14,205 nt of DNA from a virus (taxonomy: Duplodnaviria > Heunggongvirae > Uroviricota > Caudoviricetes): the IMG/VR virus record IMGVR_UViG_2585427782_000007; one strand, written 5' to 3'. A program made the position numbers and the translations under genes. Position 1 is the first letter of the stretch, and every line of letters starts with the position of its first letter. Of this stretch, positions 2,073 to 14,205 are shown piece by piece. Below the pieces are notes generated by a model. The model was given only the letters and a program-made list of their open reading frames with translations, searched no databases and was not told the origin of the DNA.

Positions 2073-3921
2073 AGTTAACATTACGCGTCCTGCAAGACGC
2101 TTAACATTAATCTGAGGCCAATTTCATGCTAGACACATGTAGGTTAGCCTCTTACGTGCCGAAAGGCACGGAGAAGCAGGCTATTGTTAACACCAAGCTG
2201 TAATGTCCCCTTTGAACCATTCTAAAATGTCCCCAGACAATTCTCTGGGGGATTTTTCATGATCAAAGAGACTGTTACGATGAGTCATAAGGAACTCCAC
2301 CGACTTCAGATTATTCAGGAACAAGCTGCGGCACGCATTGGCATTTCTATTCGGCAGGTTAAACGTCTGGTGCAACGGTATAGAAATGAAGGGCCTTCTG
2401 GTCTGGTTTCCCACCGACGTGGAAAGCGTCCTAATAATTCCTTTTCTACTGAATTCAGAGCAACAGTAATTTCACTCCTCAAAGGCCGTTACGCTGATTT
2501 TGGACCTACGTTTGCGTGCGAAAAATTGCGCGAGATACACGGTTTATCTTTATCCGTTGAAACTCTCAGAAAGTGGATGATAGAAGAGGGGTTATGGCGT
2601 GAACGCCGTCGTAAAATTGCCCGTATATATCAACGCCGCATGCGACGACCATCTTACGGTGAACTGATCCAGATTGATGGCTCACCTCATGACTGGTTTG
2701 AAAATCGAGGCCCCAGATGTACACTGATCGTTTTCATTGATGATGCCACCAGTGCGTTGATGGCGTTGCGTTTTGTGCCTGCTGAAACAACCCGGGCTTA
2801 CATGGAAACCCTCCGGGGTTACCTTAATGATCATGGCGTACCGCTCGCTCTCTACTCTGATAGACACAGTATATTCAGGGTAAATAACCCAGAGCGGGAA
2901 GGTGAGCTGACCCAGTTCACTCGTGCGATAAAGACACTGGGCATCGAGCCAATCCATGCCAACAGCCCGCAGGCAAAAGGGCGGGTAGAGCGCGCCAATC
3001 AGACACTACAGGACAGGCTGGTCAAAGAAATGCGGCTTCAGAATATCAGTGATATTGAAACAGCAAATGCATGGTTGCCGACCTTTATTGAAGCCTATAA
3101 CAACCGGTTCGCTACGTCGCCTCGTACTACTGATAATGCTCATCTTGATGTGCACCATTCTGAAGAGGAACTGGGTTATATCTTCAGCCTACAGGCGAAG
3201 CGCGTTCTGTCTAAAAATCTCACTTTCCAGTACAAAAGCAGTGCGTTTCAGGTACGCAGTGAGGGCCGGGGATATCGACTTAGGCATTCGGTTGTTACTG
3301 TATGCGAGAACTTTGACGGTGAAATTAACGTTCTGTATGACGGGAAAGCGCTGGGCTGGGAAAAGTATGTTGATGGCCCGGAGCCTATACCACTGGATGA
3401 TGAAAAGAGTGTCCATGAACGAGTGGATAATGCCCGTATTGATTTACGCTCAAAATACTATGTTAAACCTAAAGCTGACCATCCCTGGCTTACGCGCCGA
3501 ACGCAAAGTCATCAGCAAGTTAAGCCCCCGAAGTTACCTAAAAAGAAGCCTGATCCCGATAAAAAAGATTGAAACCAAGATCGATTCGGTTGAGTGCATA
3601 TCCATTCATAGGGTAGATTCTTAAGTCGCGTTTCTGGTGTTCATTTTCGGGTGGTTTGTTACTTGTTTTACCGGGGATATGCCAGAAACGCGCTGAGTCA
3701 GTCTGGGCGGTGCGCGTAATGAGGCGTTATGGTAAATAGCCTATGCTAATGTCCGCTAAGAGCAAGAAGCGGAAGTTGGCAGTTTTGTGGACTGTCCCCA
3801 CAAAAGTGACTACAGAAATAGTTGCAATTCATAATTGATCATGGGTTGTCAGTTAAACTCGTGGCGATTTAAATAGACTAATTGGGAGTGCGTCCATTAC
3901 TTATATCTTGTAATGTTAACT
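2073..3921 (+). mobile_element. Putative insertion sequence carrying the DDE transposase; boundaries tentative
   Basis: Single transposase ORF 2259..3572 flanked by an exact 12-bp inverted pair: AGTTAACATTAC at 2073-2084 and GTAATGTTAACT at 3910-3921. No similarity beyond the 12 bp and no flanking direct repeat, so the ends are uncertain. Confidence 0.3.
2259..3572 (+). CDS. DDE-type transposase with N-terminal helix-turn-helix (retroviral-integrase-like core; IS481/ISNCY-like, family not resolved)
   Basis: 437-aa ORF. N-terminal HTH-like segment (AARIGISIRQVKRLVQRY), then candidate catalytic residues in VFIDDATS, LYSDRHSIF and GRVERANQTLQDRL. GGGGGA precedes ATG 2259. Confidence 0.85.
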   Translation: MIKETVTMSHKELHRLQIIQEQAAARIGISIRQVKRLVQRYRNEGPSGLVSHRRGKRPNNSFSTEFRATVISLLKGRYADFGPTFACEKLREIHGLSLSVETLRKWMIEEGLWRERRRKIARIYQRRMRRPSYGELIQIDGSPHDWFENRGPRCTLIVFIDDATSALMALRFVPAETTRAYMETLRGYLNDHGVPLALYSDRHSIFRVNNPEREGELTQFTRAIKTLGIEPIHANSPQAKGRVERANQTLQDRLVKEMRLQNISDIETANAWLPTFIEAYNNRFATSPRTTDNAHLDVHHSEEELGYIFSLQAKRVLSKNLTFQYKSSAFQVRSEGRGYRLRHSVVTVCENFDGEINVLYDGKALGWEKYVDGPEPIPLDDEKSVHERVDNARIDLRSKYYVKPKADHPWLTRRTQSHQQVKPPKLPKKKPDPDKKD

Positions 3922-3964
3922 ATCAGAAATGATACAAAGATAATATGTCTTTAAAGAAAAGGCT

Positions 3965-3995
3965 GATGGCGAAAAGTGGCCCGATGAGGGCCACA
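3965..3995 (-). terminator. Rho-independent terminator of flxA
   Basis: Minus strand reads GTGGCCC-TCAT-CGGGCCAC (plus 3977-3995) followed by CTTTTC just after the flxA stop at 4009. Confidence 0.5.
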
Positions 3996-4008
3996 ATACG
4001 GCTGTCAC

Positions 4009-4341
4009 TTAGACGTAAATATCAATGGTGCCAGCGGTATTTGTATCGTCTTTTTTCTCTTCTTTTTTATCAGGCTGAACTGTCGCGTCTTCATTCTTTT
4101 TCTCTGCCTGCTGCCTTAACAACTGCTCCAGTTGAGCCCAGAGGCTTTCAATTTGCTTCTGTACCAATGCAGCCATTTCTTTTTTCTGCTGTGTCGTCAT
4201 CCCCTCTTCCGATGAGATTTTCCCAAGCTTTTCAGTCAGCACCTGAATTTGTCTTGTGATTTTGGCTATTTCTGATGTTCCTTCCGGGGCGGAGTTGTTT
4301 GAAATAACGGTTGAGGTATTTCCCTGAATTGTGACAGACAT
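4009..4341 (-). CDS. flxA: FlxA (110 aa), sigma-28-dependent prophage protein
   Basis: Table ORF 4009..4341; MSVTIQGNTSTVISNNSAPEGTSEI...; SD AGGAG upstream; consensus sigma-28 promoter immediately upstream. Confidence 0.8.
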   Translation of the reverse strand: MSVTIQGNTSTVISNNSAPEGTSEIAKITRQIQVLTEKLGKISSEEGMTTQQKKEMAALVQKQIESLWAQLEQLLRQQAEKKNEDATVQPDKKEEKKDDTNTAGTIDIYV

Positions 4342-4364
4342 AGATTTCTCCTTTTAAAAAAGCA

Positions 4365-4391
4365 CTATCGGCATGCACAAAAAAATCTTTA
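4365..4391 (-). promoter_or_regulatory. Sigma-28 (FliA) promoter of flxA
   Basis: Minus strand reads TAAAGATT-N11-GCCGATAG against consensus TAAAGTTT-N11-GCCGATAA (plus 4384-4391 and 4365-4372), about 23 nt upstream of the flxA ATG. Confidence 0.6.
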
Positions 4392-4543
4392 ATCGTATTT
4401 CTTGTGTCATTAATTGTTTGATGTTCAGATTGTTTTCCTCGCGGGCTGGCGCGCCTCAGAAAGTAAAGCTTGTTGACAGGGGTAAACGTTCGGCAATAAT
4501 TTTCTGCCGCATGCGGGTGTTGCATAAAACGTGTTACGTTCCT

Positions 4544-4849
4544 TTATCGACAGGTCAGGTCACCGCTCACCCGCCGACGAGAAAGCAACACTGACATGCT
4601 AAAGCAAAAAATAGATGAATAAGTTGAGTTGTGCATATGTAGCCTGACCGTCACAAAGTATATGGTGTCTGTACCAGTAAGATGATGGCCGGACTCTTTA
4701 AAAACGAGCTGACCTGCACAATACAGGATGGACTTAGCAATGGCTGCTCCTGGCACAAAGCGGACAGTGATCACCGTTCTTACGACTACTTTCTGACTTC
4801 CTTCGTGACTTGCCCTAAGCATGTTGTAGTGCGATACTTGTAATGACAT
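4544..4849 (-). CDS. ydfV: YdfV-like hypothetical protein (101 aa); weak coding evidence
   Basis: Table ORF of 101 aa diverging from relB, matching remembered K-12 ydfV length and position. No SD, and its start codon lies inside the relBE operator, so it may not be translated. Confidence 0.35.
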   Translation of the reverse strand: MSLQVSHYNMLRASHEGSQKVVVRTVITVRFVPGAAIAKSILYCAGQLVFKESGHHLTGTDTIYFVTVRLHMHNSTYSSIFCFSMSVLLSRRRVSGDLTCR

Positions 4850-4862
4850 TTGTAATTACAAG
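4836..4862 (+). promoter_or_regulatory. relBE promoter/operator (relO)
   Basis: TTGTAAT repeated at 4838-4844 and 4850-4856; perfect palindrome TTGTAATTACAA at 4850-4861, directly upstream of the relB SD AGAGG and ATG 4874. Confidence 0.6.
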
Positions 4863-4873
4863 AGGTGTAAGAC

Positions 4874-5113
4874 ATGGGTAGCATTAACCTGCGTATTGAC
4901 GATGAACTTAAAGCGCGTTCTTACGCCGCGCTTGAAAAAATGGGTGTAACTCCTTCTGAAGCGCTTCGTCTCATGCTCGAGTATATCGCTGACAATGAAC
5001 GCTTGCCGTTCAAACAGACACTCCTGAGTGATGAAGATGCTGAACTTGTGGAGATAGTGAAAGAACGGCTTCGTAATCCTAAGCCAGTACGTGTGACGCT
5101 GGATGAACTCTGA
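4874..5113 (+). CDS. relB: RelB antitoxin (79 aa)
   Basis: MGSINLRIDDELKARSYAALEKMGVTPSEALRLMLEYIADNERLPFKQTLLSDEDAELVEIVKERLRNPKPVRVTLDEL, near-identical to remembered K-12 RelB. Stop overlaps relE start (TGATG). Confidence 0.95.
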   Translation: MGSINLRIDDELKARSYAALEKMGVTPSEALRLMLEYIADNERLPFKQTLLSDEDAELVEIVKERLRNPKPVRVTLDEL

Positions 5114-5400
5114 TGGCGTATTTTCTGGATTTTGACGAGCGGGCACTAAAGGAATGGCGAAAGCTGGGCTCGACGGTACGTGAACAGTTGAAAAAGAAGC
5201 TGGTTGAAGTACTTGAGTCACCCCGGATTGAAGCAAACAAGCTCCGTGGTATGCCTGATTGTTACAAGATTAAGCTCCGGTCTTCAGGCTATCGCCTTGT
5301 ATACCAGGTTATAGACGAGAAAGTTGTCGTTTTCGTGATTTCTGTTGGGAAAAGAGAACGCTCGGAAGTATATAGCGAGGCGGTCAAACGCATTCTCTGA
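5113..5400 (+). CDS. relE: RelE mRNA-interferase toxin (95 aa)
   Basis: MAYFLDFDERALKEWRKLGSTVREQLKKKLVEVLESPRIEANKLRGMPDCYKIKLRSSGYRLVYQVIDEKVVVFVISVGKRERSEVYSEAVKRIL, translationally coupled to relB. Confidence 0.95.
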   Translation: MAYFLDFDERALKEWRKLGSTVREQLKKKLVEVLESPRIEANKLRGMPDCYKIKLRSSGYRLVYQVIDEKVVVFVISVGKRERSEVYSEAVKRIL

Positions 5401-5471
5401 ACCAAAGCATGACATCTCTGTTTCGCACCGAAGGTGACACTTCTGCTTTGCGTTGACAGGAGAAGCAGGCT

Positions 5472-5627
5472 ATGAAGCAGCAAAAGGCGATGTTAATCGC
5501 CCTGATCGTCATCTGTTTAACCGTCATAGTGACGGCACTGGTAACGAGGAAAGACCTCTGCGAGGTACGAATCCGAACCGGCCAGACGGAGGTCGCTGTC
5601 TTCACAGCTTACGAACCTGAGGAGTAA
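5472..5627 (+). CDS. hokD: HokD/RelF Hok-family membrane toxin (51 aa)
   Basis: Below the table cutoff; read manually from ATG 5472: MKQQKAMLIALIVICLTVIVTALVTRKDLCEVRIRTGQTEVAVFTAYEPEE, stop TAA 5625-5627. Confidence 0.9.
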   Translation: MKQQKAMLIALIVICLTVIVTALVTRKDLCEVRIRTGQTEVAVFTAYEPEE

Positions 5628-5696
5628 GAGACCCGGCGGGGGAGAAATCCCTCGCCACCTCTGATGTGGCAGGCATCCTCAACGCACCCGCACTTA

Positions 5697-5728
5697 ACCC
5701 GCTTCGGCGGGTTTTTGTTTTTATTTTC
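5697..5728 (+). terminator. Rho-independent terminator of the relB-relE-hokD operon
   Basis: AACCCGC-TTCG-GCGGGTT hairpin at 5697-5714 followed by TTTTTGTTTTTATTTT. Confidence 0.6.
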
Positions 5729-5843
5729 AACGCGTTTGAAGTTCTGGACGGTGCCGGAATAGAATCAAAAATACTTAAGTAGCGCGCAGGGATAAGAGGG
5801 ATGGTCCCTTAAAGGGGAGAGCTAATTATCCGGAAGGATTCTG

Positions 5844-6095
5844 ATGATGAACATCGAAGAACTGCGTAAAATTTTTTGTGAAGATGGCCTCTATGCTGTG
5901 TGCGTTGAAAATGGAAATCTTGTTAGTCATTACCGCATTATGTGTTTGCGAAAGAATGGGGCTGCGTTAATTAATTTTGTGGATGCTCGGGTCACGGACG
6001 GATTTATCTTGCGCGAAGGTGAGTTTGTCACTTCATTACAGGCATTGAAAGAGATCGGAATAAAAGCTGGCTTTTCTGCTTTTTCAGGAGAATAA
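5844..6095 (+). CDS. rem: Rem-like hypothetical protein (83 aa)
   Basis: Table ORF with GGAAGG SD; the 83-aa length and position between hokD and ydfU match K-12 rem from memory. Sequence identity not verified. Confidence 0.55.
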   Translation: MMNIEELRKIFCEDGLYAVCVENGNLVSHYRIMCLRKNGAALINFVDARVTDGFILREGEFVTSLQALKEIGIKAGFSAFSGE

Positions 6096-6161
6096 ACTCA
6101 TCTACAATCTTGCGCGGGGCTGAACTCCCGCTGAGTAACACCGTGCCACCGGAGAAAACCG

Positions 6162-6440
6162 ATGGCACGCAACGCAAAATATTACAATTCTGATAATTCG
6201 CCCGTTCTTGCCTGCACGCACGGGCGGTATTCTCACGCATTCAAGTCTGAATGGTTCCAGCACCCTCCATGCACTGCAGAACAGGCCGAATGGCTGATTC
6301 ATTCTTACCGCAGGCGCGGGTTCGAGGTTAAGAAAGCTCTCAGTCTCGACTATCGGCACTGGATAATCTCTGTCAGGCTGCCTTATTCCGAACGCCCACC
6401 ACGTGCGTCCCGCACTTTCCAGCAACGGATCTGGAGGTAA
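6162..6440 (+). CDS. Hypothetical 92-aa protein, translationally coupled to ydfU
   Basis: GGAG about 9 nt before ATG 6162; stop TAA 6438-6440 lies 1 nt before the ydfU GTG 6442, and the ydfU SD GGAGG is inside this ORF's 3' end. I do not recall a K-12 gene at this position. Confidence 0.5.
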   Translation: MARNAKYYNSDNSPVLACTHGRYSHAFKSEWFQHPPCTAEQAEWLIHSYRRRGFEVKKALSLDYRHWIISVRLPYSERPPRASRTFQQRIWR

Positions 6441-6441
6441 C

Positions 6442-7491
6442 GTGCGGGTATTACTTAGACCTGTTCTGGTGCCTGAGCTTGGGCTGGTGGTCCTTAAGCC
6501 GGGCCGTGAATCCATACAGATATTTCATAATCCTCGAGTGCTGGTGGAACCGGAACCAAAAAGCATGCGTAATCTGCCATCCGGAGTCGTTCCTGCCGTT
6601 CGCCAGCCGCTGGCGGAAGACAAAACATTGCTGCCGTTTTTTAGTAACGAACGGGTGATTCGTGCTGCTGGCGGCGTTGGCGCATTGTCCGACTGGCTAT
6701 TACGTCATGTTACATCCTGCCAGTGGCCTAATGGCGATTACCATCACACTGAAACAGTCATTCACCGTTATGGTACCGGCGCAATGGTGTTGTGCTGGCA
6801 CTGCGACAACCAACTGCGTGACCAGACATCGGAATCACTGGAGCTGCTTGCTCAACAAAATCTGACAGCATGGGTGATTGACGTCATCCGTCACGCAATA
6901 AGCGGTACGCAGGAGCGGGAATTATCTTTGGCTGAATTATCCTGGTGGGCGGTCTGCAATCAGGTGGTGGATGCACTACCTGAGGCTGTATCGCGTCGTT
7001 CGCTGGGATTACCAGCGGAAAAAATCTGCTCGGTGTACCGCGAAAGCGACATCGTACCGGGAGAGCAGACCGCCACCAGCATATTGAAACAACGCACAAA
7101 AAATCTTGCACCGTTGCCTTACGCCCACCAGCAACAAAAATCACCACAGGAAAAGACGGTGGTAAGCATCACCGTTGATCCAGAGTCTCCGGAATCTTTC
7201 ATGAAGCTGCCTAAACGTCGCCGCTGGGTTAAGGAGAAATACACACGTTGGGTTAAGACACAGCCGTGTGCTTGCTGCGGTATGCCAGCCGACGATCCGC
7301 ATCATCTGATTGGTCACGGGCAGGGCGGAATGGGAACAAAAGCACATGATCTCTTTGTGTTGCCTTTGTGCAGAAAGCATCACAACGAGCTGCATACGGA
7401 TACAGTGGCATTTGAAGATAAGTATGGCTCCCAACTGGAGCTGATATTTCGTTTTATCGATCGCGCGCTGACAATTGGCGTACTGGCGTAA
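6442..7491 (+). CDS. ydfU: YdfU-like DUF968 protein (349 aa) with C-terminal HNH-like Cys/His motif
   Basis: Table ORF 6403..7491 (362 aa); GTG 6442 preceded by GGAGG gives 349 aa, the remembered K-12 YdfU length. C-terminus QPCACCGMPADDPHHLIGHGQGGMGTKAHDLFVLPLCRKHHNELH. Confidence 0.8.
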   Translation: MRVLLRPVLVPELGLVVLKPGRESIQIFHNPRVLVEPEPKSMRNLPSGVVPAVRQPLAEDKTLLPFFSNERVIRAAGGVGALSDWLLRHVTSCQWPNGDYHHTETVIHRYGTGAMVLCWHCDNQLRDQTSESLELLAQQNLTAWVIDVIRHAISGTQERELSLAELSWWAVCNQVVDALPEAVSRRSLGLPAEKICSVYRESDIVPGEQTATSILKQRTKNLAPLPYAHQQQKSPQEKTVVSITVDPESPESFMKLPKRRRWVKEKYTRWVKTQPCACCGMPADDPHHLIGHGQGGMGTKAHDLFVLPLCRKHHNELHTDTVAFEDKYGSQLELIFRFIDRALTIGVLA

Positions 7492-7504
7492 GTGGAGAAC
7501 GAGC

Positions 7505-8257
7505 ATGAACCTTGAAGCCTTACCAAAATATTACTCCCCAAAATCTCCAAAATTGAGCGATGACGCTCCAGCGACAGGCACCGGTTGTTTAACAATTACG
7601 GATGTAATGGCAGCGCAGGGGATGGTGCAGTCGAAAGCACCACTTGGGTTGGCCTTATTTCTGGCAAAAGTTGGTGTTCAGGACCCTCAGTTTGCGATTG
7701 AAGGCCTGCTAAATTACGCGATGGCACTGGATAACCCGACATTGAACAAATTGAGTGAAGAAATCCGGTTACAGATTATTCCTTACCTCGTGAGTTTTGC
7801 CTTTGCTGATTACTCCAGGTCTGCGGCAAGTAAGGCTCGCTGTGAGCATTGTTCAGGTACGGGATTTTATAATGTATTGCGCGAAGTGGTGAAACACTAC
7901 AGACGCGGGGAATCTGTAATCAAGGAAGAATGGGTGAAGGAACTATGTCAGCATTGCCATGGTAAGGGCGAAGCCAGCACAGCGTGCAGAGGGTGTAAGG
8001 GTAAAGGGATTGTTCTGGATGAAAAAAGAACCCGGTTTCATGGCGTACCGGTATATAAGATTTGTGGGCGTTGTAATGGAAACCGGTTTAGTCGTTTACC
8101 GACCACGCTGGCACGACGTCATGTCCAGAAGCTGGTACCAGACCTGACCGATTATCAGTGGTATAAGGGGTATGCGGACGTCATTGGTAAACTGGTAACA
8201 AAGTGCTGGCAGGAAGAAGCATACGCGGAAGCGCAATTGAGGAAGGTGACGAGATAA
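7505..8257 (+). CDS. quuQ: Q-type late antiterminator QuuQ (250 aa) with four DnaJ-like CxxCxGxG repeats
   Basis: ATG 7505 preceded by GGAG at 7493-7496 (MNLEALPKYYSPKSPK...). Repeats CEHCSGTG, CQHCHGKG, CRGCKGKG, CGRCNGN. Sits directly upstream of a promoter plus short terminator, as for lambdoid Q. Confidence 0.85.
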   Translation: MNLEALPKYYSPKSPKLSDDAPATGTGCLTITDVMAAQGMVQSKAPLGLALFLAKVGVQDPQFAIEGLLNYAMALDNPTLNKLSEEIRLQIIPYLVSFAFADYSRSAASKARCEHCSGTGFYNVLREVVKHYRRGESVIKEEWVKELCQHCHGKGEASTACRGCKGKGIVLDEKRTRFHGVPVYKICGRCNGNRFSRLPTTLARRHVQKLVPDLTDYQWYKGYADVIGKLVTKCWQEEAYAEAQLRKVTR

Positions 8258-8288
8258 ATGATTTTTGCTGAAGATGGCGACATGATGT

Positions 8289-8317
8289 TTGCATTTTTCA
8301 AAAAATATGGATAAAAT
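8289..8317 (+). promoter_or_regulatory. Candidate late promoter (pR'-like) downstream of quuQ
   Basis: TTGCAT (8289-8294), 17-nt spacer, TAAAAT (8312-8317); followed about 50 nt later by a strong terminator, the arrangement expected for a Q-utilisation site. Confidence 0.5.
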
Positions 8318-8363
8318 TTTTTCAACGATGGGCTTTGTATACCCGACGTTAAGAAAAAGTAGA

Positions 8364-8393
8364 AAACCCGCTGATGAGCGGGTTTTGTGCTTT
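8364..8393 (+). terminator. Rho-independent terminator (tR'-like) of the short late leader transcript
   Basis: Perfect 9-bp stem AAACCCGCT-GATG-AGCGGGTTT (8364-8385) followed by TGTGCTTT. Confidence 0.6.
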
Positions 8394-8678
8394 AAATGGG
8401 GCAATGGTAATGTTGAATCTCATCCCGGGACTCATGTCTGTTAACTTATTATTTAGCTGGTGACTTGGTTATTTGCCTGATGTTTAAAATGTTTTCTTCC
8501 AGTACAATGTCCCTAAACACAATGAGTCTGCTTATTATATTATTAGCAGAGCTATTACGGCCAAAGTACAGCATAAGCTTTTAAAGCCAATCAACCAGTC
8601 ATCAAGACAGACGGGGTTATTCATAAAAACTCTCCATGTGTGATCCGATGGGGCCTGAAATTAAAGCTTTAATATAGC

Positions 8679-8891
8679 TCATGAAAGGTAAACATTGGCA
8701 GCTGAAGGGCCACGCAGACCATTTATCCGGCAAAATTCCACGCGTAATCCGGTGGTAATTTCTTCTGCATCGCGGAGATTGAGCGCTGAAACATGAAGCT
8801 GGACATCGATACGACCATCGGATGGGGTGATAAGACCCTTGCCGCTTTTGCCGTCAAAGGTTTTGACAATTCCTGTCATTTTACGGGACAA
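8679..8891 (-). CDS. cspF: Cold-shock protein family member CspF (70 aa)
   Basis: [70 protein letters not shown]; divergent from cspB as in Qin. Confidence 0.9.
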
Positions 8892-9191
8892 AAAAATTCC
8901 TTAATACTGATAACTTGGCGCACTATACACACGTTCCTGAAGAAAGCTATAGTTTTTTGATGGGGTTGAAGATGGCTGGATGTCTAAAATAAACATTGCT
9001 TCATATGTTCAACTATGCGTTAATGATTGCGTCGGTTTGAAGAACAGACGATATACGAAGTAGTTTACTAAAGCAGTTCTCATTTCAGGTGTTATTCACT
9101 TATTCCTTCTTTGAGTCTCTCCAATTAAGTACGAAGTCGTTTCTGTTATGCAAACCATTTATGCCGAAAGGCTCAAGTTAAGGAATGTAGA

Positions 9192-9407
9192 ATGTCAAAT
9201 AAAATGACTGGTTTAGTAAAATGGTTTAACGCTGATAAAGGTTTCGGCTTTATTTCTCCTGTTGATGGTAGTAAAGATGTGTTTGTGCATTTTTCTGCGA
9301 TTCAGAATGATAATTATCGAACCTTATTTGAAGGTCAAAAGGTTACCTTCTCTATAGAGAGTGGTGCTAAAGGTCCTGCAGCAGCAAATGTCATCATTAC
9401 TGATTAA
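9192..9407 (+). CDS. cspB: Cold-shock protein CspB (71 aa)
   Basis: [71 protein letters not shown]; SD AAGGAA; roughly 300-bp upstream region typical of csp leaders. Confidence 0.9.
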
Positions 9408-9688
9408 AATTCATCGCTCGTCTGTATACGATAACGAAGAAGGCTGATGCCTGAGTAGAGATACGGACAGAGTAGTGAATATTGGATCTCTTTAATAAAA
9501 AGTAAGGAGGTCCAATACATGAAACAATGGCTAGCATATTTGGCAAAATCTTAATCAGGAAAAGTATGCTAACCATTGTGGTGAAGTGCAGGTTTGCTGC
9601 ATGAATAGTTTTACAGCAGAAGCTAACTGCTGGCATGGCAAAACAAAGTGCGTAAGTGGATGACTCCCACAAAAAGCACCACAATCTC

Positions 9689-9712
9689 AAACCCGCTCAG
9701 GCGGGTTTTTTA
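9689..9712 (+). terminator. Rho-independent terminator about 280 nt downstream of cspB
   Basis: AAACCCGC-TCAG-GCGGGTTT hairpin followed by TTTTTTATT. No terminator is visible directly after the cspB stop. Confidence 0.55.
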
Positions 9713-9770
9713 TTATCTGCTTTAAATATATTATTAAAATATAAAAAATACTTGTTACTAATAAAATCAA

Positions 9771-9941
9771 TCAGGCTACAGCTTTAAGATTTGTCTGGAA
9801 TACTTTGTTGCAATGAGGGCAGATCAAAAGGGCACCTTTTTGTACTCTTGAAAAACTGTGTTCTGACTCTTGGGTGCAGTTTGGGCAGGAACATTTAACG
9901 AGATAATTACGGCGTGATTTTGAGTTTTTACGTTCTGACAT
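9771..9941 (-). CDS. Small zinc-ribbon protein (56 aa), function unknown
   Basis: Internal Met of table ORF 9771..9992 with AGGAAAAG SD: MSERKNSKSRRNYLVKCSCPNCTQESEHSFSRVQKGALLICPHCNKVFQTNLKAVA. Two CxxC pairs 18 residues apart. May correspond to a small zinc-binding Qin protein, but I cannot confirm this. Confidence 0.5.
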   Translation of the reverse strand: MSERKNSKSRRNYLVKCSCPNCTQESEHSFSRVQKGALLICPHCNKVFQTNLKAVA

Positions 9942-10160
9942 AGGCTTTTCCTGTATAAATGGCCGTATACAGTACACTAAATATGAAAACATTTCTCGTA
10001 TTATTATTTTATATATGACTTTCTTTCAAAATAATTACCCACATTTTTAATGTGTATGTTTTTTTAGCGCCGTTGAGAACAACGTGTGCTGTCAAAACTA
10101 CCCCGTAGACTCCGATCTTTTCAAACATATTGCACCATCCGTGTACATCGGGGTGAGGAT

Positions 10161-10376
10161 ATGAAATCAATGGATAAGTTAACAACAGGTGTTGCCTATG
10201 GCACATCGGCGGGGAATGCTGGTTTCTGGGCATTGCAGTTACTCGATAAAGTAACTCCGTCACAGTGGGCTGCAATCGGTGTGCTGGGTAGCCTGGTTTT
10301 TGGCCTGCTGACGTATCTGACAAATCTTTATTTCAAGATTAAAGAAGACAGGCGTAAGGCTGCGAGAGGAGAGTAA
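10161..10376 (+). CDS. essQ: Class II holin / pinholin EssQ (71 aa), phage 21 S-like with dual-start motif
   Basis: ATG 10161 preceded by GGTGAGGA: [71 protein letters not shown]. Met1 and Met4 suggest an antiholin/holin pair; two TM segments. Confidence 0.85.
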
Positions 10377-10380
10377 TCCA

Positions 10381-10688
10381 ATGACTCAAGACTATGAACT
10401 GGTTGTGAAAGGAGTCCGTAATTTTGAGAATAAAGTTACGGTAACTGTAGCCTTACAGGACAAAGAACGCTTTGACGGTGAAATTTTTGACCTGGATGTC
10501 GCCATGGACCGTGTTGAAGGAGCTGCGCTGGAGTTTTATGAGGCAGCAGCCAGAAGGAGCGTCCGGCAAGTCTTCCTGGAAGTAGCAGAAAAATTGTCAG
10601 AAAAAGTTGAGTCTTATCTGCAGCATCAGTACTCCTTTAAGATTGAAAATCCTGCCAATAAGCACGAGCGTCCTCATCATAAATATCT

Positions 10689-10692
<4 letters not shown>
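10381..10692 (+). CDS. ydfR: YdfR (DUF1327-like) acidic protein of unknown function, inside the lysis cassette
   Basis: 103-aa table ORF; starts 5 nt after the essQ stop and its stop overlaps the rrrQ start (ATGA at 10689-10692). Confidence 0.85.
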
Positions 10693-11716
<1,024 letters not shown>

Positions 11717-12078
11717 GGTAATATTAAATCGGAACATTTACATCGCGGAATGTAAAATTTAAATAAAAAGGACTCTTCCATGAGCCAAAATTCCTGAAAT
11801 CTTAAGGGTAAGATAAAAGGTCTTAATCAGAATGACACGTTTTATTAATAAATAAAGCTATTCTTTCATTGCTGTGTTTTTCTTTACAAAAGTAATCCTT
11901 GCTATGGGTGGTTAATCATGCGTTAATGGTGTTCTGGTTTGTTACAAATTTATCTGAAGCAGTCATTGTTATAATTTTATTATTTGTACCTCTTGAGATT
12001 TCCTTGTTGGTTTTTCTCTCTGATATTTTTTTTCGGACCATTCTGCCCAAGGGCTAATTTCTTCAAAAGGTAATAATT

Positions 12079-12291
12079 ATGTCTAACAAAATGACTGGTT
12101 TAGTGAAATGGTTTAACCCTGAAAAAGGTTTTGGTTTCATCACGCCGAAAGATGGCAGCAAAGATGTGTTTGTCCATTTCTCAGCAATTCAGAGCAACGA
12201 TTTCAAAACATTAACTGAGAATCAGGAAGTTGAATTTGGTATTGAGAACGGACCTAAAGGTCCTGCCGCTGTTCATGTAGTGGCGCTTTGA
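12079..12291 (+). CDS. cspI: Cold-shock protein CspI (70 aa)
   Basis: [70 protein letters not shown]; about 360-bp AT-rich upstream leader. Confidence 0.9.
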
Positions 12292-12322
12292 GGTAGACAA
12301 TATTACAAACCATATTCACTTT

Positions 12323-12490
12323 AGATGCCCGTGTTGTCATGGTTCCCAGTATAGAACATCATCTTTTGATGTTTCTGACATGAATCCTTTCGGGGCAAAA
12401 TGTATCTTTTGTAAATCAATGATGATTACATTTGATAATATTTCACAATACTTAAATGCCAGCCGTCTGTCGTTGGATTTAAAAAAGTGA
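12323..12490 (+). pseudogene. Degenerate zinc-ribbon ORF lacking an in-frame canonical start before its first Cys pair (candidate decayed paralogue of 9771..9941)
   Basis: Frame reads ...HFRCPCCHGSQYRTSSFDVSDMNPFGAKCIFCKSMMITFDNISQYLNASRLSLDLKK, stop 12488-12490. First in-frame ATG is at 12380, after the first Cys cluster. Confidence 0.25.
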
Positions 12491-12495
12491 AAATG

Positions 12496-12518
12496 AAGGC
12501 TCCTTCGGGAGCTTTTTT
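12496..12518 (+). terminator. Rho-independent terminator about 200 nt downstream of cspI
   Basis: AAGGCTCC-TTCG-GGAGCTT hairpin followed by TTTTTTG. Confidence 0.55.
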
Positions 12519-12562
12519 GCTTGGTGTCTATTCGATGGATACTCACATACTACGGTAACATC

Positions 12563-12793
12563 ATGAAAAAAATCATAGTTTTTTTTAACTCTGAACCAGC
12601 AGTGGTAGTGCCAGCGATGACTGGAGTTAACACCATCATGCGTGAATATCCAAATGGCGAAAAAACACACCTTACTGTAATGGCCGCAGGGTTTCCATCT
12701 CTGACCGGAGATCATAAAGTCATTTATGTAGCCGCGGATCGACATGTTACTTCAGAAGAAATTCTGGAAGCAGCAATAAGGCTCTTGAGTTGA
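12563..12793 (+). CDS. YnfN-like small protein (76 aa from ATG 12563; 51 aa from ATG 12638, which has a GGAG SD)
   Basis: Table ORF 12521..12793; position between cspI and gnsB matches ynfN in Qin from memory, and the 51-aa internal start matches the length I recall for YnfN. Confidence 0.5.
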   Translation: MKKIIVFFNSEPAVVVPAMTGVNTIMREYPNGEKTHLTVMAAGFPSLTGDHKVIYVAADRHVTSEEILEAAIRLLS

Positions 12794-12961
12794 TTTGATG
12801 CTATTGCATTGATAATTCAGGAAAATTCTCTTTGTCTGTTTGTGTAAAATTTAGACTATCGTATGTTGATTATTGCGATGTTTCATCTTATCTTTTACAC
12901 GTTTGCACCATATAATCGACTTACTGTGTAACTGGAAAGTCATAACAGACTAAAAGAGGAA

Positions 12962-13138
12962 ATGATGAATATTGAAAACTTAAAAACAAAAGCAGAAGCA
13001 GATATTTCTGAATATATAACAAAAAAAATTATTGAACTTAAGAAAAAGACCGGGAAAGAAGTTACCAGTATTCAGTTTACCGCACGGGAAAAAATGACGG
13101 GTCTTGAAAGCTATGATGTCAAGATTAATTTAATCTGA
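12962..13138 (+). CDS. gnsB: GnsB (Gns family small protein, 57-58 aa)
   Basis: Below the table cutoff; read manually: MMNIENLKTKAEADISEYITKKIIELKKKTGKEVTSIQFTAREKMTGLESYDVKINLI, stop TGA 13136-13138, SD AGAGGA. Tandem ATGs at 12962 and 12965. Confidence 0.8.
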   Translation: MMNIENLKTKAEADISEYITKKIIELKKKTGKEVTSIQFTAREKMTGLESYDVKINLI

Positions 13139-13289
13139 TGTATTCAATAATAAAATTTATCCATAAACCTCGTTTTTACGGGGTTTTGTTATATTTGAAT
13201 GGTTCCGAATATCTAAATCACAATTGTTGATGGTTTTTATTAAACCAATGCAGTCCGGCTCAGGAGTGAGAGAAGCCGGACGTTATGGT

Positions 13290-13700
13290 TTAGCGTGGTA
13301 AGATCTGTGTAGTTTTCTGGATGCTTTCAGTAAATAGTAATGAATTATCAAAGGTATAGTAATATCTTTTTTGTTCGTGGATATTTGTAACCCACCGAAA
13401 AACTCCTGCTTTAGCAAGGTTTCTTCTGTATTCCTGAAATGTGATCTCTCTGGATTTCAGCTTATTAGAGGTCGTTTCTATAAGATGCCTATCCTTTGAA
13501 AATTTGACAGACACAATGTTTTTTAGGCCCTTTAATAACACTGTATTATCATTTTTTAATACAATATGAACATTCTCTGTGGCTAAATAGTAAATGTAAT
13601 GTGAGACATTGTGACGTTTTAGCTCAGAATAAAACCATTGATAGTTTAAATCGTTTCGAACTTTATCAAATATTTGTTTAAAAATGACTACCTGATCCAT
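13290..13700 (-). CDS. ydfO: YdfO (DUF1398) hypothetical protein (136 aa; table ORF extends 5 codons further to 13715)
   Basis: Second Met [30 protein letters not shown]... is preceded by GAAGG and gives 136 aa, matching remembered ydfO length. Confidence 0.8.
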
Positions 13701-13757
13701 AGATAAACCTTCCATGTGATATGAGGGGGCGTAGTCTGCACGATTATCTAAATTGCT

Positions 13758-13991
13758 TCAATCTGGTCTGACCTGTTTTCTGAGCAATTCAGTAATGTCA
13801 CTCTTTTCTTTGTTTGCTTCAGAAGAAACTCTTTTTTCTGAGCACAGTCTCCGGCGGCAGGCTTCAATGACCCAGGCTGAGAAATTCCCGGACCCTTTTT
13901 GCTCAAGAGCGATGTTAATTTGTTCAATCATTTGGTTAGGAAAGCGGATGTTGCGGGTTGTTGTTCTGCGGGTTCTGTTCTTCGTTGACAT
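13758..13991 (-). CDS. ynfO: YnfO-like small protein (77 aa), possible ribbon-helix-helix fold
   Basis: MSTKNRTRRTTTRNIRFPNQMIEQINIALEQKGSGNFSAWVIEACRRRL...; sits between ydfO and cos, as ynfO does in Qin. Confidence 0.65.
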   Translation of the reverse strand: MSTKNRTRRTTTRNIRFPNQMIEQINIALEQKGSGNFSAWVIEACRRRLCSEKRVSSEANKEKSDITELLRKQVRPD

Positions 13992-14040
13992 GAGGTTGCC
14001 CCGTATTCAGTGTCGCTGATTTGTATTGTCTGAAGTTGTT

Positions 14041-14205
14041 TTTACGTTAAGTTGATGCAGATCAATTAATATGATACCTGCGTCATAATTGATTATTTGA
14101 CGTGGTTTGATGGCGTAGATGCACGTTGTGACATGCAGATGATAATTATTATCATTTTGCGGGTCCTTTCCGGCGATCCGACAGGTTACGGGGCGGCGAC
14201 CTCGC
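14041..14205 (+). other. Lambda-type cos region (right-end cosQ-side sequence plus cosN 12-nt cohesive end at 14191-14202)
   Basis: GGGCGGCGACCT at 14191-14202, preceded by ...TTTTGCGGGTCCTTTCCGGCGATCCGACAGGTTACG, nearly identical to the phage lambda right end and cohesive end as I remember them. Confidence 0.8.

Follow-up and report, generated by a model that had tools for sequence, protein, structure and literature searches.

The E. coli genes infC and pcnB are initiated at AUU, a codon against which IF3 discriminates; in infC, the AUU of a free-standing start serves the autoregulation of IF3. Two further genes with this start, ymcF and ynfQ, code for small proteins which D'Lima et al. (2017) are said to have found by cold-shock proteomics and whose ATT starts they reportedly mapped by mutagenesis. 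In strain K-12, ymcF (b4723) is located directly after cspG, and its product of 62 amino acids is 66 % identical to YnfQ (E 9e-34). Both genes begin with ATT 10 nt past a csp stop codon, with the same AGG upstream and the csp stop overlapping the Shine-Dalgarno (SD) sequence, and both proteins contain the motif CPCCHG...CIFC. Either gene has a hairpin and a U-run behind its stop (-12 kcal/mol, z -3.9 for ymcF of K-12), and both are trailed by paralogues, ymcE/ynfN and gnsA/gnsB. ymcF is chromosomal and present in nearly all E. coli, whereas the ynfQ copy resides in prophages or phages. Of 5426 complete E. coli genomes, 5414 gave a match in a search for distant DNA similarity; the class of about 73 % identity was cspG-ymcF, and the class of at least 95 % identity, present in about 2130 E. 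coli genomes, was cspI-ynfQ. Behind their lysis genes, sequenced live lambdoid phages such as Tritos, 2H10 and mEp460_ev081 also carry the cassette cspI-ynfQ-ynfN-gnsB. E. coli-like or Scandinavium-like csp-ymcF units were observed on contigs labelled as Veillonella parvula MAG, Mucilaginibacter MAG and Chryseobacterium sp., probably a result of mis-binning or contamination in public records. A later paper (PMC10191623) cites D'Lima et al. 2017 (J Proteome Res 16:3722) for the use of AUU as start codon; a literature search on cold-shock microproteins with an ATT start gave no match.

The Qin locus and the identity of ynfQ

The window, i.e., the whole stretch of 14,205 nucleotides that was analysed (IMG/VR record IMGVR_UViG_2585427782_000007), is the Qin cryptic prophage of E. 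coli; its positions 3746-14205 are the reverse complement of K-12 MG1655 1636542-1647000 with an identity of 99.86 %. Locally, the genes follow each other in the order cspB, ynfU (opposite strand), essQ, ydfR, rrrQ, rzpQ, cspI, ynfQ, ynfR, ynfN and gnsB. The first cistron of the unit considered here, cspI (12079..12291, +; ORF listing and RefSeq annotation), encodes the cold shock protein CspI of 70 amino acids. Behind ynfQ, RefSeq annotates ynfR (12493..12558, +; 21 amino acids), whose ATG lies 2 nt past the ynfQ stop, and as next cistron ynfN (12563..12793, +; RefSeq/PGAP), with 76 amino acids according to PGAP. The small ORFs form a tight chain (window 12488-12563): cspI, 10 nt, ynfQ, 2 nt, ynfR, 4 nt, ynfN. 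The start of ynfN is annotated in two ways: the 76 amino acids of PGAP begin with MKKIIVFF, and ynfN (b1551) in K-12 RefSeq and in phage Tritos comprises the last 51 amino acids only (156 nt). Elsewhere in the window, Rfam matches were obtained to the sok antitoxin (RF01794, 2014-2185, +, 104 bits), outside the K-12 stretch compared, and to a second cspA thermoregulator (9031-9423, +, 158.8 bits) spanning cspB and its leader.

Read from 12323, the frame behind cspI gives RCPCCHGSQYRTSSFDVSDMNPFGAKCIFCKS... and ends at the TGA 12488-12490. It is open after an in-frame TAG at 12278-12280, and the codons before the first cysteine are TGG CGC TTT GAG GTA GAC AAT ATT ACA AAC CAT ATT CAC TTT AGA; between this upstream stop and the first cysteine, no ATG, GTG or TTG is present. 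The original prediction, made from the letters alone, had described such a peptide without a canonical start at 12323..12490. The peptide and the missing starts were found as described, the limits were not: the mapped RefSeq CDS and Pfam assign 12302..12490 (+) to ynfQ (b4724), a YmcF-like cold-shock small protein of 62 amino acids. Its start codon in RefSeq, for K-12 and other strains, is the ATT 12302-12304, and its stop the TGA 12488-12490. A CDS of 189 nt is annotated at this site in many E. coli genomes as 'cold shock small protein YmcF'; in K-12, b4724 occupies 1638256..1638444. The protein aligned over its full length with Pfam PF23641 (YmcF-like; residues 1-62 on 1-62/62, 109.9 bits at a cut-off of 27, E 6.9e-32). 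ynfQ is an already known, curated K-12 gene of a described family, and the frame after cspI is very probably this intact gene of Qin, with an AUU start at 12302. Because of the unusual ATT, neither a reader of the sequence alone nor a standard ORF finder sees a start for ynfQ.

The naming of the gene varies. The protein WP_071524604.1 (YnfQ) has the gene symbol ymcF in one E. coli genome and ynfQ in another, and the product names of the ynfQ CDS alternate among E. coli genomes between 'cold-shock protein' and 'cold shock small protein YmcF'. The 'ynfQ' of VanOrsdel et al. (2018) is a different ORF of 37 amino acids between ydfJ and ydfK (PMC6001520), which is now named ynfT (b4748) in the K-12 annotation.

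Start codon in relatives and alternative readings of the frame

Eighty loci of Enterobacteriaceae from about 20 genera were fetched, with codon 1 of ynfQ (12302) as alignment reference. They included Escherichia, Shigella, Citrobacter, Salmonella, Klebsiella, Raoultella and Enterobacter as well as Kosakonia, Scandinavium, Yokenella, Trabulsiella, Siccibacter, Atlantibacter and others. At the position of 12302, 54 of the 80 loci had ATT, 4 had ATC and 22 had ATG, and nearly all code for a product of 62 amino acids. In the ATG orthologues, the ORF starts exactly at the aligned codon 1. The ynfQ start is fixed at 12302 by this codon alignment together with the curated annotation and a methionine in position 27 that is specific to the window allele. 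A non-canonical start, the fallback of the original prediction, was borne out by the RefSeq ATT at 12302 and the ATG of orthologues at the same aligned codon. Its main proposal, decay, found no counterpart in the comparison of the same locus among relatives: the frame coded for 62 amino acids in nearly all of the 80 loci, with ATT, ATC or ATG at the aligned start.

Two readings dispense with AUU initiation. Among the ORFs with canonical starts, the ynfQ frame contains one only, an ATG ORF of 36 amino acids at 12380..12490 (MNPFGAKC...), and it might be the sole translated part, the first Cys knuckle then being missing. This is very improbable. Its initiating residue, Met27, is peculiar to the window allele, the other members having R, K, Q, S, N or G in this position, and residues 1-26, including CPCCHGSQYRTS, are the best-conserved part of the family. 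Orthologues have an ATG at the aligned codon 1, and no Shine-Dalgarno sequence is evident before 12380.

Alternatively, YnfQ might be synthesised as a CspI-YnfQ fusion via +1 recoding near the end of cspI. The open ynfQ frame does extend back to 12281, in the +1 frame relative to cspI, of which it covers the last 11 nt, and Citrobacter sedlakii possesses a genuine fusion, a single ORF of 130 amino acids from -204 to +188. In that species, however, the fused csp is degenerate (VKEFN for VKWFN, FVPSS for FVHFS) and an ATG is present at the normal ymcF codon 1. Stand-alone, ATG-initiated orthologues of 62 amino acids exist without any csp, the distance between the conserved SD and the ATT speaks for initiation, and an obvious slippery motif was not found in the cspI/ynfQ overlap. 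Recoding is thus highly unlikely, and initiation at the AUU 12302 is the reading followed below.

Protein family, selection and the relation to ynfU

The alignment of 27 YmcF-like proteins contained 19 columns that are invariant across genera, all of them present in the window protein. In the first Cys knuckle, C9-P-C11-C12 (CPCCHG; 12326..12337, +), the invariant residues are C9, P10, C12 and G14, and C11 and H13 reach a conservation of at least 90 %; in the second, C34-I-F-C37 (12401..12412, +), no variation occurs at I35, F36 and C37, and C34 again reaches at least 90 %. YnfQ has the complete YmcF-like core FRCPCCHGSQYRTS...NPxGAKCIFCK with four cysteines in two knuckles. An AlphaFold2 model based on the family alignment had an only moderate mean pLDDT of 72.7; the Cys-knuckle core (residues 11-40) reached 80-88 and formed short strands, and the tail was a low-confidence helix. 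Foldseek with this model against the PDB yielded nothing significant (best E 0.46), the weak top hits (E>=0.46) being zinc ribbons, namely the N-terminal domain of MqsA, TFIIE-alpha and eL43. The search of PDB sequences with hmmsearch was likewise without significant hits (E>=0.025), PHROGs had no family for YnfQ, and in NCBIfam no family scored above its cut-off. A 2026 review presents YnfQ modelled with a rubredoxin topology (PMC13348028). By its conserved cysteines YnfQ is a YmcF-like small protein of a putative Cys4 zinc-ribbon type, with metal binding as a prediction. Like generic Cys4 zinc ribbons and rubredoxin-like knuckles, it would have two CxxC knuckles on beta-hairpins, and it has no significant structural or sequence match to the MqsA N-terminal domain, TFIIE-alpha or ribosomal eL43. 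As for the role, a zinc-binding adaptor for nucleic acid or a larger protein in cold adaptation is a guess that we make with low confidence.

The ORF at 9771..9941 (-), to which the original prediction had likened the frame, is ynfU (b4776; RefSeq), coding for 56 amino acids of a CPxC zinc-knuckle family (PF23499, E 3.5e-31; NF038384). Like YnfQ, YnfU is small, has two Cys knuckles, is encoded in Qin and adjoins a csp gene (cspB). Unlike ynfQ, ynfU has a canonical ATG, lies on the opposite strand and is without translational link to csp, and its product has a basic N-terminal tail where YnfQ has the YmcF-type core. The frame after cspI had been taken for a decaying duplicate of this gene that has lost its start. 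In favour of this descent are the paired CxxC knuckles of both peptides, separated by about 20-25 residues, the position of both genes near csp in one prophage and the hits of both proteins to NCBIfam NF047912 ('ECs_2282 family putative zinc-binding protein'). These hits (E 0.0023 for YnfQ, 0.068 for YnfU) are below the cut-off of 37 bits and probably reflect generic CxxC similarity. The supposed resemblance vanished upon pairwise comparison: BLASTP of YnfQ and YnfU returned no alignment at E<=100, and hhalign of the 27 YmcF-like against 20 YnfU-like proteins gave a probability of 3.8 % over 8 columns, with knuckle 1 paired to knuckle 2. Each protein was assigned to its own Pfam family with E~1e-31, YnfQ to PF23641 and YnfU to PF23499, and YnfQ had no hit to PF23499 or NF038384. 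Homologue searches with either family did not retrieve the other, nor were YnfU representatives among the 42 hits (E<=0.001) of an exhaustive search with the YmcF profile in 1.84 billion representatives. Two long repetitive proteins in the profile search, P0195 and P0203, were rejected as spurious hits due to a repeated 'AKCIFSKS' string. What YnfQ and YnfU have in common is, judged by these comparisons, the generic CxxC...CxxC pattern only, and at the level of sequence the families are unrelated.

Selection on the frame was assessed by Nei-Gojobori counts for ynfQ versus ymcF and 14 orthologues. In residues 1-45, pN was 0.05-0.13 versus a pS of 0.6-1.0 per site, with synonymous sites saturated. 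The C-terminal tail was looser (pN 0.35-0.72); between YnfQ and YmcF it has diverged (residues 46-62) with a pN of about 0.43. By these counts ynfQ is not decaying; it is full length and under strong purifying selection. With separate families, an intact ORF of full length in its own family and pN far below pS, an origin of the frame as a decayed second copy of ynfU has next to no probability. Scarcely conceivable is also a chance ORF in a non-coding 3' UTR of cspI, as the absent canonical start and the omission of the frame by standard ORF finders could suggest, in view of saturated synonymous sites with a core protein nearly invariant across genera, the 19 invariant columns, the Pfam E of 7e-32 and the curated K-12 gene. 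Where a conserved Cys-rich frame immediately follows a csp gene and has no ATG, GTG or TTG, a gene with a non-canonical start is to be assumed, not decay.

The real second copy of cspI-ynfQ is cspG-ymcF. The notion that csp morons arrived with a linked zinc-ribbon gene fits cspI-ynfQ; it does not extend to ynfU as a copy of that gene, the YnfU-like proteins being a separate family that also occurs beside csp-ymcF elsewhere. In Citrobacter, Scandinavium, Pseudescherichia vulneris and Atlantibacter, genes for YnfU-like proteins (41-93 % identical to YnfU of Qin) precede csp-ymcF units by a few hundred bases. Counted from codon 1 of ymcF (locus position 2501), they occupy -885..-718 in locus L027, -802..-635 in L033, about -700..-530 in L044, L046, L055, L057, L061, L066 and L076, and -641..-495 in L065 and L070, always on the opposite strand. 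Thus, two unrelated families of Cys4 small proteins recurrently flank csp genes.

Start codon, csp adjacency and a possible translational coupling

The start codon covaried with the upstream gene. An intact csp ended 9-10 nt upstream in 47 loci, of which 43 had ATT, 4 ATC and none ATG. Among the 33 loci without an adjacent intact csp, ATG was present at codon 1 in 22 and at codon 2 in 3, and ATT in 8. The latter belonged to the Pseudescherichia sp. group and two Citrobacter. These are raw counts, phylogenetically uncorrected, and represent roughly four independent changes. AUU or AUC was kept in 47 of 47 loci with intact csp, in at least 10 genera, and AUG appeared in about four csp-losing lineages: Klebsiella/Raoultella, which retained a 3' remnant of csp, Enterobacter/Leclercia/Silvania, with a stronger AGGAG as SD, C. 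sedlakii, with its in-frame fusion of a degenerate csp and ymcF, and Atlantibacter, with the ATG at codon 2. The covariation of start codon and csp adjacency is possibly the sole new point of this analysis. It provides a testable hypothesis for the upkeep of a weak start codon and, if true, a natural example of a start codon that varies with the architecture of its operon.

The transcript architecture was examined for the Qin locus. A cspA-type thermoregulator mRNA element, composed of the 5' UTR and coding region of cspI, was detected at 11933..12318 (+; Rfam RF01766, 112.8 bits at a gathering score of 78, E 1e-28, model 1-428/428), its 3' end extending past the ynfQ start. Between cspI and ynfQ no terminator-like site was found, and a promoter scan of this region revealed no convincing internal promoter (2 weak sites versus 5.6 expected by chance). 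A GC-rich hairpin with a U-run, resembling an intrinsic terminator, is located at 12495..12518 (+; -13 kcal/mol by RNA folding). This hairpin sits inside ynfR, although YnfR and ynfN have been reported as cold-induced or co-induced. RNA-seq showed a co-induction of cspI (6.5-fold), ynfQ (5.9-fold) and ynfN (5.8-fold), with ynfQ denoted as 'cold shock induced' (PMC11228462), and YnfR-SPA rose strongly after cold shock (VanOrsdel 2018, PMC6001520). The thermoregulator, the lack of an intervening terminator, the trailing hairpin and the induction data point to ynfQ as a downstream cistron of the cold-shock transcript, that is, ynfQ would be the second cistron on the cspI mRNA. The RNA around the ATT of ynfQ folded no more stably than shuffled sequences (z -0.39), so no thermosensor at the start site is proposed.

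The ynfQ ATT begins 10 nt past the cspI stop. This stop, TGA, overlaps the SD of ynfQ, GAGGT (T[AG]AGG; 12289..12294, +), about 8 nt before the ATT, and the overlap of stop and SD (T[AG]A+GG) recurred in all listed orthologous loci that adjoin a csp. Taken together, an AUU that is weak by itself, the spacing of 10 nt and the stop/SD overlap (TGAGG) suggest that YnfQ originates chiefly from ribosomes which have finished cspI immediately before. YnfQ synthesis would then be tied to the translation of CspI and hence to the cold, in which the cspA-type mRNA is stabilised and translated. From the distribution of start codons we infer that the weak AUU or AUC may be sustained by termination-reinitiation coupling to csp translation. 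The eight ATT loci without csp indicate that AUU can persist without coupling. That AUU/AUC is a selected device, by which the translation of ymcF and ynfQ depends on the termination at the upstream csp, is a tentative proposal to which we give somewhat less than an even chance.

With infC and pcnB, ynfQ and ymcF share the rare initiation codon AUU. Unlike in infC, the AUU or AUC of ymcF and ynfQ follows 9-10 nt behind an intact cistron in 47 of 47 such loci. This spacing to csp suggests a coupling to the preceding cistron rather than a sensing of IF3 at ymcF and ynfQ.
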